Shown one piece after another: positions 458 through 1,516 of a stretch of 64,000 bases of DNA. Where the stretch lies: positions 33,784-97,783 of the IMG/VR virus record IMGVR_UViG_3300045988_184100; one strand, 5' to 3'. Position 1 is the first letter of the stretch; each line of letters opens with the position of its first letter. The position numbers and the translations under genes were made by a program. The notes beneath the pieces are model-generated. The model ran no database searches and had not been told where the DNA came from. It worked only from the letters and a program-made list of their open reading frames with translations. Source of the stretch: a virus.

Positions 458-1516
458 TTAGGCAGGATTCTGCTCGGAGGCCATGCGCTGACCTTCGGAC
501 AGCACGACCTGTGCCAGCGCCTCGTCATGCTTTGCTTCCGGTGCTACGGTGGCGGTATCTACATCCACCAGCGTGCGTCCAGCCCAGTCCGCCTTATACT
601 TTATCATACCGGTAAGTTCAGACCAGCCGGCATCGAGGATGCTTTTAGCCTGCTCATTGCCCTCAACTAAGGGCTTAACGGCCACCTTCTCAACGGCAAT
701 AAGCTGGTTTGCGTTGACAAGTTCACGGCTGATTTTATGCCGGTAGTCATTGCGCTGATTGGCAATATGCTCATGGACGCCGGCTACCTTGCGCCGCTGC
801 TTCTCGTAGTTGGCAGAGCCTTTTTTCTTACGGGATAGACGCCGCTGCTCACGGGCCAGCCGCTTTGCAGACTTGCTCAGATGCTTCGGGTTCTCATAGT
901 GAACGCCGTTGCTGTCAATAGCCAACTCCTTCAGGCCGAGACTGATGCCCACTTCGCCGTCCACAATAGGCAGCGTGTCTCGCTCTACTTTACAGCAGAC
1001 AGATGCCCAGTATTTTCCGGTAGCAGACCGAGAAATAGTGACCTCGCGGGGAGACCCTTCGATGGGGCGCCCCGTCCCTCGCCTGAGCTTGTTGATTTTC
1101 TGATACTGCCCTCCAAACGGAACTTGAATGTAATCGTCCGTCACATAGATAGTACCAGCGGTCGTAAAACTCTGGGTCGGATGGGACGCGCCCTTAAATT
1201 TGGGATAACCGGGCTTCTCCCCCGCTTTAATGCGGCGGAAGAACGCTTTTCGCGCCTCAAACAAATCAATGATGGCATATCTCTCTGCCGTACAGCCGCA
1301 GTCCGCAAGCCAAGGCCAGCGCTCCCGCATCTCCGTGAGAACCTTCATACAGTCGAAGGTCGTCATCTTCTCCTGTCGGCGCTCATAGATTTTGGAGGTT
1401 TGTTCAAGGAAATGATTCCACACAAACCGGCAGCATTTGAAAGTCTTCTCGATGATTTCGACCTGCTCATCAGTCGGGTAAATGCGATACTTAAACGCTT
1501 GAAATGTAGTTGGCAT
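458..1516 (-). CDS. tnpB: TnpB-family (IS200/IS605 OrfB) protein, 353 aa, apparently nuclease-inactivated: RuvC-I Asp replaced by Ser, RuvC-III and zinc-finger missing (TldR-like)
   Basis: The N-terminus [18 protein letters not shown]...CCRFVWN is the classic TnpB start. The RuvC-I region reads [16 protein letters not shown] where canonical is GIDLG...SDG. RuvC-II is IAVEKV, so the Glu is kept. After ...GRTLVDVD the protein ends in 32 unrelated residues with no CxxC zinc finger and no D-NAA-NI motif. ATG at 1514-1516 with AAAGGA Shine-Dalgarno; the six-frame ORF extends to 1642 only through non-coding upstream. Confidence 0.8.
   Translation of the reverse strand: [352 protein letters not shown]

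Follow-up and report, generated by a model that had tools for sequence, protein, structure and literature searches.

A 64,000-nucleotide stretch of the IMG/VR record IMGVR_UViG_3300045988_184100 (positions 33,784 to 97,783 of that record; hereafter the window) carries a TnpB-family gene, dTnpB (positions 458–1516 of the window, minus strand), which is followed by a non-coding RNA scaffold and a repeat-spacer array. Our analysis indicates that dTnpB is probably an exapted, nuclease-dead TnpB that works with CRISPR-like arrays and silences host defence genes and rival elements without cutting DNA. Silencing of host defence and of rival integrative elements is indicated by the two targets found for spacers of related arrays, the restriction-modification gene hsdM and an excisionase-like gene that precedes an integrase.

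The dTnpB open reading frame (ORF) runs from an ATG at 1516 to a stop codon at 458 on the minus strand and encodes 352 amino acids; an earlier note on this DNA, hereafter the original prediction, had given 353. That prediction placed the protein in the TnpB/OrfB family, and database searches bear this out. Matches exceeded the curated cut-offs for Pfam OrfB_IS605 (PF01385; E 2.4e-25, 89.5 bits versus a cut-off of 30.5), Pfam HTH_OrfB_IS605 (PF12323; E 3.9e-18, 65.1 bits versus 21) and NCBIfam guided_TnpB (E 7.9e-76, 255.8 bits versus 100). The NCBIfam equivalog for active IS200 TnpB, IS200_TnpB, was missed, at 306 bits versus a cut-off of 425. In a phmmer search of PDB sequences, residues 6–322 aligned with ISDra2 TnpB (8h1j/8exa) at 1e-49, and a match to LaTranC was weak (E 3e-12 across 84 residues). 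Taken with the structural model and the selection analysis described below, these profiles identify a TnpB-family coding sequence with WED, REC and RuvC regions and without a zinc finger.

The catalytic positions were read from three alignments, made with ISDra2 TnpB, with 13 homologues and with 115 homologues (116 sequences in all). In all three, the GxDxG motif of RuvC-I reads GISLG in dTnpB, so Ser192 (codon at 941–943, minus strand) replaces the catalytic Asp, in agreement with the original prediction; the column is Asp in at least 90% of the 116 sequences. The catalytic Glu of RuvC-II is kept as Glu276 (IAVEKV; 689–691, minus strand), in a column that is invariant in the 116-sequence alignment. 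The RuvC-III Asp column is occupied by Asp331 (524–526, minus strand) within a motif that is degenerate relative to RDxNAAxNIL. In full-length relatives the RuvC-III block reads HDRDENAAKNILxEGLRL. Residues 329–345 of dTnpB align with it; Asp331 is kept there, and the NAA..NI signature alone has decayed, to ALAQVV. The catalytic triad of dTnpB is therefore S192-E276-D331 in place of an intact D-E-D.

These alignments require one revision of the original prediction, which had described the C-terminal tail as unrelated to TnpB and RuvC-III as absent. The last 24 residues include the stretch that aligns to the RuvC-III block, Asp331 is present, and an AlphaFold2 model places a helix at residues 331–349. 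The loss of the zinc finger was predicted correctly. Both of its CxxC pairs fall in columns that are deleted in dTnpB, and the TNB profile (PF07282) matches over positions 1–24 of 60 only, at 18.4 bits versus a cut-off of 26.3. Residues 321–328 (TATVAPEA; 533–556, minus strand) form the linker that remains after deletion of the zinc finger, about 28 residues. Because the tail aligns to the RuvC-III block with Asp331, the lesion is, as read from the alignments, an internal deletion of ~28 residues combined with the RuvC-I D-to-S change and NAA..NI decay, not a C-terminal truncation. The fold is predicted to have survived. The AlphaFold2 model is confident (predicted local distance difference test 91.3, predicted template modelling score 0.83), and Foldseek matched it to ISDra2 TnpB (8exa_A) with E 3.5e-27 and a template modelling (TM) score of 0.85; comparison with Cas12m structures gave TM scores of 0.65–0.68. 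Considered together, these changes suggest that dTnpB has probably lost DNA cleavage.

The gene has been maintained in this shortened form. A protein search recovered a tight clade comprising proteins at 99% identity (352 residues, 370 member sequences), 87% identity (352 residues, 147 members) and 79% identity (348 residues). We compared 31 loci, namely the window and 30 more (3 metagenome contigs and 27 IMG/VR contigs). The ORF is intact in all 31, at 348–352 residues and with GISLG at the same position, and these loci encode 21 distinct proteins. Between the window gene and the 87% clade, the ratio of nonsynonymous to synonymous divergence (dN/dS, Nei-Gojobori) is 0.07 at a dS of ~1.2, and within clades it is mostly 0.02–0.1 where differences suffice for an estimate. 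By this measure, strong purifying selection acts on the shortened dTnpB. The original prediction had named two outcomes that would speak against it: a recent frameshift, with the missing motifs in another frame, and, at the corresponding locus of related genomes, an active gene of full length. Neither was found. There is no alternative RuvC-I Asp and no zinc-finger or RuvC-III sequence in the three frames downstream of LVDVD; the shortened GISLG form occupies 30 of the 30 further loci, and none of the 31 carries a full-length active gene. Along with selection and the adjacent omegaRNA-derived scaffold, these outcomes support the original view of dTnpB as a nuclease-dead exaptation resembling TldR.

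The locus itself is the same in ~30 related contigs of up to 192 kb. Its flanks are constant: a tRNA cluster and a RecG-like helicase lie to one side of the gene, and the arrays lie opposite; in the window, dTnpB lies just downstream of four tRNA genes (1903–2443, same strand). The gene is single-copy within the window. No transposase was found among the neighbours scanned, and transposon ends had no explicit search. By copy number, locus and neighbours, dTnpB does not look like a mobile TnpB, which has multiple copies, transposon ends and often an adjacent TnpA.

One segment of the gene diverges less than the rest. Codons 321–352 (458–556) show a synonymous divergence from the 87% clade of only ~0.19, versus ~1.2 for the whole gene, which suggests either an extra constraint on the DNA or RNA or recent gene conversion.

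The RNA partner predicted for dTnpB, Scaffold A (263–395, minus strand), is a non-coding module of ~135 nucleotides fused to the first repeat of the array and defined by covarying stems and a covariance model. The model, R1, was built from 46 aligned units of scaffold plus first repeat (mean identity 86%), among which compensatory changes occur in the stems (e.g. GC in 26 and AU in 10, or AU in 36 and GC in 7). R1 finds exactly two full copies in the window, at 227–395 (E 1e-62) and 30963–31129 (E 4e-64). It also gives weaker matches downstream of active TnpB genes (L031/L033, 4e-9; L076, 5e-7) and downstream of two dead relatives, P0022 and P0026 (L070/L071; 7e-9 and 5e-10). On the strength of these matches, the scaffold is homologous to TnpB omegaRNA scaffolds, and dTnpB, like a TldR, is adjoined by a guide RNA of putative omegaRNA origin. 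An Rfam search of window positions 1–3200 returned tRNAs only, with no known RNA family at the scaffold.

The second copy, Scaffold B (30999–31129, minus strand), has no tnpB adjoining and starts 8 nucleotides past the 3' end of a tRNA-Ser gene (31138–31225, minus strand). The junction (…CTCTCCGCCAAAAAAACAAGTACGG) recurs in several related genomes, which suggests that Scaffold B may be co-transcribed with the tRNA and that its 5' end may be made by tRNA processing. At one contig end (L001, 12957–13038), the 3' part of the scaffold recurs after the array in inverted orientation; this could be a second, convergent unit or else an artefact of assembly that created a palindrome.

The repeats appear to derive from the same RNA. 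In two active relatives the omegaRNA ends in GTATACAAT.TACCCACTGTAAATTAC.AATACC, and their loci diverge afterwards, which places the start of the guide right after …ATACC. The 36-nucleotide repeat contains the same blocks in the same order as the last 36–38 nucleotides of these omegaRNAs, and it also ends in ATACC directly before each spacer. This likeness exceeded that of 2000 of 2000 shuffles for one relative and of 98.9% of shuffles for the other. The shared, ordered blocks and the common end imply that the repeat represents the terminal module of an ancestral omegaRNA, with spacers standing at the guide position. The array would most simply have originated by serial duplication of this terminal module plus guide, a route that Altae-Tran et al. 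(PMC10691335) have proposed in general terms. The repeat is compatible with a hairpin (90% of cells paired), and RNAalifold predicts pairing between ACUCUGUU in the scaffold and AACAGGGU in the repeat, with no covariation.

The array beside dTnpB, which the original prediction had recognised, is real, with repeats of 36 nucleotides and spacers that range from 20 to 30 across the arrays. On the minus strand, Repeat A1 (GGTATACACCACCCGGAAATAACAGGGTTGTATACC; 227–262) follows Scaffold A and is succeeded by the 20-nucleotide Spacer A1 (AATTCATGGCGTCTCCTTTT; 207–226), for which no target was found, and by a terminal repeat (171–206) with a degenerate 3' end (…GGGTTTTACCAT). Array B (30831–30998, minus strand) consists of repeats at 30998–30963, 30932–30897 and 30866–30831 that enclose two spacers of 30 nucleotides each, TTTGCAGTTTTGAACAATCCTGCCGAATAC and GGGGCGGTGGTTATATATGAGGAGACCCAA. 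The repeat core, GAAAYRACAGGGTTGTATACC, occurs in 35 IMG/VR stretches that all belong to one contig family, including five separate stretches in one 172-kb contig. Across all loci we counted 57 distinct repeat clusters of 1–6 repeats and 57 unique spacers, mostly of 30 nucleotides. A related genome may hold up to ~10 such clusters. Over all loci, most clusters are preceded by the conserved scaffold segment. The dTnpB-adjacent site holds from 0 to 3 spacers, in differing combinations, among genomes whose proteins are 99–100% identical. Spacer turnover is thus CRISPR-like, and the arrangement of a RuvC effector beside a strain-variable repeat-spacer array is that of type V and TranC systems. The idea of programming by multiple guides, also raised in the original prediction, holds for a scaffold combined with arrays of variable spacers.

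The repeat core was found in 0 of 185,579 GTDB species-representative genomes, which argues against a host CRISPR with this repeat and against an integrated copy in the representative genomes. No Cas protein was identified by Pfam or PHROGs among ~38 ORFs of the window and related loci; many type V subtypes can do without an adaptation module (cas1, cas2, cas4).

A third scaffold-array lies ~3–6 kb beyond the gene in related genomes (L004, 12699–12841; e.g. L005, 14226–14368). Its repeats have diverged, and its spacers, ACAGAATAACTGCGGCAGC (19 nucleotides) and GCATAAAAAAGGCTAT (16 nucleotides), are identical in 18 fetched loci from both protein clades, some of which overlap on the same contig. 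Conservation and TldR-like length suggest that these guides may have a fixed target; the short spacers have no match in the window.

Targets were sought for 54 spacers, which were concatenated and compared with GenBank phages by blastn (one match); IMG/VR was scanned with the first 20 nucleotides of the spacer that matches hsdM. In the collections searched, two of the 54 spacers match elsewhere, each at 29 of 30 positions, and the others have no match. The spacer TCAGTTCAGGGCAATGAACACGCGCCCTGT, present in two genomes, matches MT835962.1, a sequence from human faeces (E 5e-3 for the whole query), inside an ORF of 80–99 residues of the HTH_17 (excisionase) type that ends at the start of a Phage_integrase (tyrosine integrase) gene. 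The spacer AAGTACCTCAGCGATGTTTCTAAAGAGAGG, present in three genomes, matches the 6.4-kb IMGVR_UViG_3300006298_000093 at about codon 37 of an HsdM_N/N6_Mtase gene, which follows an HsdS gene in a type I restriction-modification operon. Because nine of the ten positions beyond the exact 20-mer also match, the hsdM match is very unlikely to have arisen by chance. Both spacers equal the coding (sense) strand, so the guide would be complementary to the template strand of the DNA and could not pair with mRNA. dCas12a blocks elongation in this orientation, with its guide on the template strand. Neither protospacer is in a promoter; both sit in coding regions, which belong to other elements or to host defence genes. 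In use, the arrays seem to have more in common with the silencing of foreign genes by Cas12m than with a TldR-type housekeeping transcription factor.

No spacer matched PLSDB plasmids, the conserved spacer core was absent from GTDB genomes, and post-array (terminal) sequences had no match in GenBank phages. Three further ideas about the spacers were examined and rejected. Self-targeting found no support, as neither spacers nor post-array sequences matched within the window or, outside the arrays, in ~960 kb of related loci. Two spacers that share the nine bases ATGGCTTCT were considered as flanks of one site; a metagenome scan returned one 23-nucleotide match whose flanks disagree, and we attribute it to chance. 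Finally, spacers do not correspond to ribosome-binding sites followed by ATG (0 of 44 with the motif, versus 1.6 expected).

MT835962.1 also contains an orphan omegaRNA-like scaffold (L074, 1630–1719; R1 E 2e-11) ~280 nucleotides upstream of the protospacer, with no tnpB-like ORF within 1.6 kb of it. It could represent a guide-RNA element that is not autonomous, or else its RNA may use a TnpB or dTnpB supplied in trans.

The mechanism that we propose is as follows. The protein would still fold and bind guide RNA. Its guides would be supplied by a CRISPR-like system derived from its own omegaRNA, in which the scaffold became fused to a repeat and the module plus guide was duplicated serially, with copies of the scaffold-array now scattered over the mobile element (two in the window and several more in related genomes). 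Transcripts of these units, once expressed and processed, would load the protein; the first spacer would be read in cis, and later spacers would probably be used with a scaffold acting in trans, in the manner of a trans-activating CRISPR RNA (tracrRNA). The loaded complex would bind matching DNA flanked by a transposon-adjacent motif and block RNA polymerase without cutting. The carrier would thereby lower expression of host restriction-modification genes and of excision and integration genes of its rivals. A more specific version of this proposal is that a 352-residue effector and a ~135-nucleotide scaffold form a self-contained minimal CRISPR interference (CRISPRi) system, derived from an omegaRNA and directed against host restriction-modification and rival excision and integration, with spacer turnover in which no Cas1-Cas2 is seen in the examined parts of the element. 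We put this version forward tentatively and judge it somewhat less likely than not.

Several observations weigh against the silencing proposal. Two of the three catalytic carboxylates (E276 and D331) are kept, and for this reason residual or altered nuclease activity is possible, judging from the active-site residues. Covariation in the repeat hairpin was not above that of shuffles, and the best scaffold:repeat duplex in trans, at -28.5 kcal/mol, was reached by 4.8% of shuffles (z about -1.9). The 5' flanks of the two protospacers, TGTTCGT and AATTGCG, have only TT at -5/-4 in common (n = 2). Matches were obtained for only 2 of 54 spacers, with one mismatch each, in target contigs that are short, of uncertain origin and both labelled viral, and the three spacers of the window itself have no target in IMG/VR (beyond arrays), GenBank phages or PLSDB plasmids. 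Spacer turnover is without a mechanism in the parts of the element examined. Finally, the label of phage comes from IMG/VR only, and the gene content of the window is at least equally like that of a plasmid or conjugative element.

The two retained carboxylates also lend weight to the explanation that best survives beside our own, namely that dTnpB is still a nuclease with a non-canonical site (Ser192, Glu276 and Asp331, or a relocated acidic residue) and that the arrays direct cleavage by a very small type V interference system similar to TranC. No Cas12 or TnpB tested is known to dispense with the RuvC-I Asp, and this residue is substituted in every member of the dTnpB clade. In addition, the entire zinc-finger/TNB domain is deleted and the NAA..NI signature around D331 has decayed, although the RuvC-III helix is confidently modelled. 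P0077, a relative at 68% identity, is also without the RuvC-III Asp, though its gene is interrupted by an insertion sequence. Many TnpB groups with altered catalytic residues may stay active (Altae-Tran et al., 2023, PMC10691335), and TnpB-sized TranC effectors with repeats of 32–38 nucleotides, one of them in a phage, have been described (bioRxiv 10.64898/2026.03.27.714800). Against this, described TldRs show exactly the spectrum of decay seen in dTnpB (bioRxiv 10.1101/2023.11.30.569447). We regard retained cleavage as unlikely.

We likewise hold it to be improbable that dTnpB is a TldR-type housekeeping regulator, one that acts on the element's own genes or on one fixed host gene through conserved terminal or short guides, with the variable spacers being incidental. 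Some genomes do have, at the dTnpB locus, a scaffold, one terminal repeat, a conserved stretch of ~20 nucleotides and a terminator, which is the layout of a single fixed guide, and the conserved array with 19- and 16-nucleotide spacers in 18 fetched loci of both clades would fit such a role. So would two dead relatives, P0022 and P0026 (L070, 362–1500; L071, 1387–2560). These proteins of 320–321 residues share ~45% identity with dTnpB, have lost the RuvC-I Asp and end just past the same 'TAT' junction, which suggests that the zinc-finger deletion was one older event. Downstream of each gene come a single scaffold, a short stretch of unique sequence and a strong terminator, as in TldR loci. From their sequences they seem to form a family with one guide that resembles TldR and is so far undescribed; it may be a sister of the clade with arrays. 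In contrast, spacer sets that vary among near-identical genomes are a poor fit to a fixed target, and both matches found are in foreign genes. Moreover, terminal sequences and short spacers are unmatched in the window, the terminal ones also in GenBank phages, and the 30-nucleotide spacers are unmatched outside arrays in the related loci; these self-match searches covered part of a genome of ~190 kb.

Inactivated TnpB and Cas12 proteins have repeatedly been recruited as targeting modules (PMC10691335; PMC13472631), and dTnpB could similarly recruit a recombinase, transposase, helicase or sigma factor, as does Cas12k in CRISPR-associated transposons or dCas12f with sigmaE. The gene for the RecG-like helicase is ~1.6 kb away and syntenic in related contigs. 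It is, however, divergently oriented with the tRNA cluster between, and synteny within one element family is no evidence of functional linkage. A scan of the neighbours revealed neither a transposase nor a sigma factor or integrase, and the other arrays are far from any candidate partner. We consider recruitment of this kind quite improbable. That dTnpB is a decaying IS200/IS605 tnpB pseudogene with unrelated repeats, as its damaged active site and less than canonical length might suggest, deserves almost no credence: the reading is refuted by the selection analysis (dN/dS 0.07 at dS ~1.2, with intact ORFs in 31 of 31 loci), and the gene is single-copy at a fixed locus, gives a confident AlphaFold2 model and is always adjoined by a scaffold homologous to omegaRNA.

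Silencing by a nuclease-dead TnpB with its own arrays has partial precedents. At the protein level, dTnpB is close to TldRs (Wiegand et al., bioRxiv 10.1101/2023.11.30.569447; later Nature 2024). As defined there, TldRs are TnpB-derived, with a decayed RuvC and no zinc finger, and dTnpB fits this description. Like dTnpB, they occupy fixed loci on mobile elements, with no transposase and with an omegaRNA-derived guide directly downstream, and fliC-associated TldRs are phage-borne. Whereas a TldR has a single fixed guide, which is aimed at the promoter of a host gene (fliC, oppA), and is paired with a partner gene, dTnpB has arrays with variable 30-nucleotide spacers, extra scaffold-array copies scattered over the element, and matches inside coding regions of a defence gene and a rival element. 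The nearest relatives of dTnpB outside its tight clade are ordinary active TnpBs of 370 residues (51–53% identity), and the exaptation is therefore, by sequence relationship, probably independent of that of the described TldR clades (fliC-, oppF- or csrA-associated).

TranC systems (bioRxiv 10.64898/2026.03.27.714800) are close at the RNA level. They combine a TnpB-sized effector with an omegaRNA split into a tracr-like scaffold and CRISPR repeats of 32–38 nucleotides, in short arrays with no adaptation genes nearby, and their examples come from gut Firmicutes and a phage. TranC effectors are active nucleases with RuvC and TNB intact, unlike dTnpB, in which the RuvC site and TNB are damaged, with loss of the RuvC-I Asp and zinc finger, and which by its residues does not look like a cleavage-competent effector; in addition, its scaffold is fused to the first repeat.

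In their predicted use, the arrays resemble those of Cas12m (type V-M), in which the RuvC domain is inactivated, and of plasmid type IV systems (review PMC11656645). These are also borne by mobile elements, have arrays without an adaptation module and silence competitors without cutting, as we infer here. Cas12m differs in size (~600 residues), in belonging to another branch and in having arrays that are not fused to an omegaRNA-type scaffold; overall, type IV and Cas12m proteins are either unrelated to dTnpB or much larger. dCas12f-sigmaE and Cas12k are further examples of type V or TnpB-like proteins with a dead nuclease. RuvC-III or the zinc finger is missing from them and their guides serve functions other than cutting, but they recruit a co-encoded sigma factor or a Tn7-like transposase, and no such partner occurs among the dTnpB neighbours scanned. 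Virus-borne CRISPR mini-arrays and solitary repeats (PMC11656645) are likewise short, are carried by mobile elements and have spacers that target other elements. Those copy host repeats and borrow host Cas proteins, whereas the dTnpB element brings its own effector and scaffold, and its repeats are not those of a host CRISPR, their core being absent from the 185,579 GTDB genomes. Altae-Tran et al. (PMC10691335) list V-U groups with altered catalytic sites and arrays. In a literature search of incomplete coverage, we came across no phage or plasmid described as carrying a dead TnpB together with dispersed arrays fused to scaffolds.

If the silencing proposal is correct, three threads that were described separately would meet in one natural system: dead TnpBs as RNA-guided repressors with a single guide (TldR), omegaRNAs that can split into a tracr-like RNA and CRISPR repeats (TranC), and mobile elements that use non-cutting CRISPR against competitors (Cas12m and type IV). 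It would provide an observable intermediate between omegaRNA and array, in which the terminal module of the omegaRNA serves as the repeat and the first repeat is still joined to the scaffold. The hsdM target would suggest RNA-guided disarming of restriction-modification by a mobile element. How spacers are gained would become a question, no adaptation genes having been found. For applications, a 352-residue protein smaller than dCas12f would offer a naturally multiplexed DNA-binding platform for CRISPRi or effector fusions. Should the more specific, tentative version also hold, the system would be the first case in which the transition from omegaRNA to CRISPR array is seen in a lineage with a dead nuclease, and also the first TnpB-based counter-defence that is guided by RNA and programmed by arrays.

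The nature of the carrier, a large mobile element from the human gut, matters for the proposal: it would enter cells either by infection or by conjugation, and type I restriction-modification restricts both. The related contigs are all IMG/VR 'viral' genomes, up to ~190 kb in length. In the window, no capsid, portal or terminase was identified by PHROGs and Pfam among ~35 ORFs scanned. The window encodes five tRNA genes, a type IA topoisomerase (39649–41964), PemK (8513–9094) and RecG-like helicase, VWA and SPFH proteins. By megablast it has no match among GenBank phages, and its sole plasmid match is a stretch of 86 nucleotides that overlaps the tRNA-Ser gene. For this gene content, a phage appears to be no better a fit than a conjugative plasmid or phage-plasmid of Gram-positive bacteria. 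Two giant ORFs on the minus strand (46106–51856 and 53633–63967; 1916 and 3444 residues) resemble Gram-positive adhesins, with TQ ester-bond, SpaA and thioester domains.

Two minor features flank the RNA module of Scaffold A. A palindromic hairpin (412–438) between the dTnpB stop codon and the scaffold is a candidate terminator or processing site, and two terminator-like hairpins (115–151, minus strand) lie ~20 nucleotides past the terminal repeat.

P0077 is a partial sequence with the same zinc-finger deletion and has Cys at the RuvC-I position and Gly at the RuvC-III position. An active TnpB of full-length type, with its omegaRNA, lies directly upstream of the RuvC half of P0077 (L080, 446–1976). 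Because the P0077 gene is interrupted by this active TnpB insertion sequence, we considered and gave little weight to P0077 as evidence of progressive decay. The junction in P0077, at …SRSATGKY, falls in the region of one recombination junction of a mosaic protein, P0003 (348 residues; L003, 10001–11047). Columns 51–185 of P0003 (REC/WED) are 100% identical to P0011, an abundant active TnpB with 885 member sequences, and its N-terminus and entire dead RuvC half are identical to the window protein. The P0003 contig was seen in 2 samples, and the mosaic could reflect either recombination of the exapted gene with a live insertion-sequence copy or an assembly chimera. In four related genomes (L022, 11260–12744; also L023–L025), an IscB-like ORF of 494 residues (Pfam RRXRR, 9e-52; GIDPG RuvC-I and HNH motifs) separates the dTnpB stop codon from the scaffold as an insertion. 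This insertion alters the C-terminal residues of dTnpB (…MASEGY) and displaces the array by ~2 kb, and it places a second kind of RNA-guided OMEGA element inside the locus.

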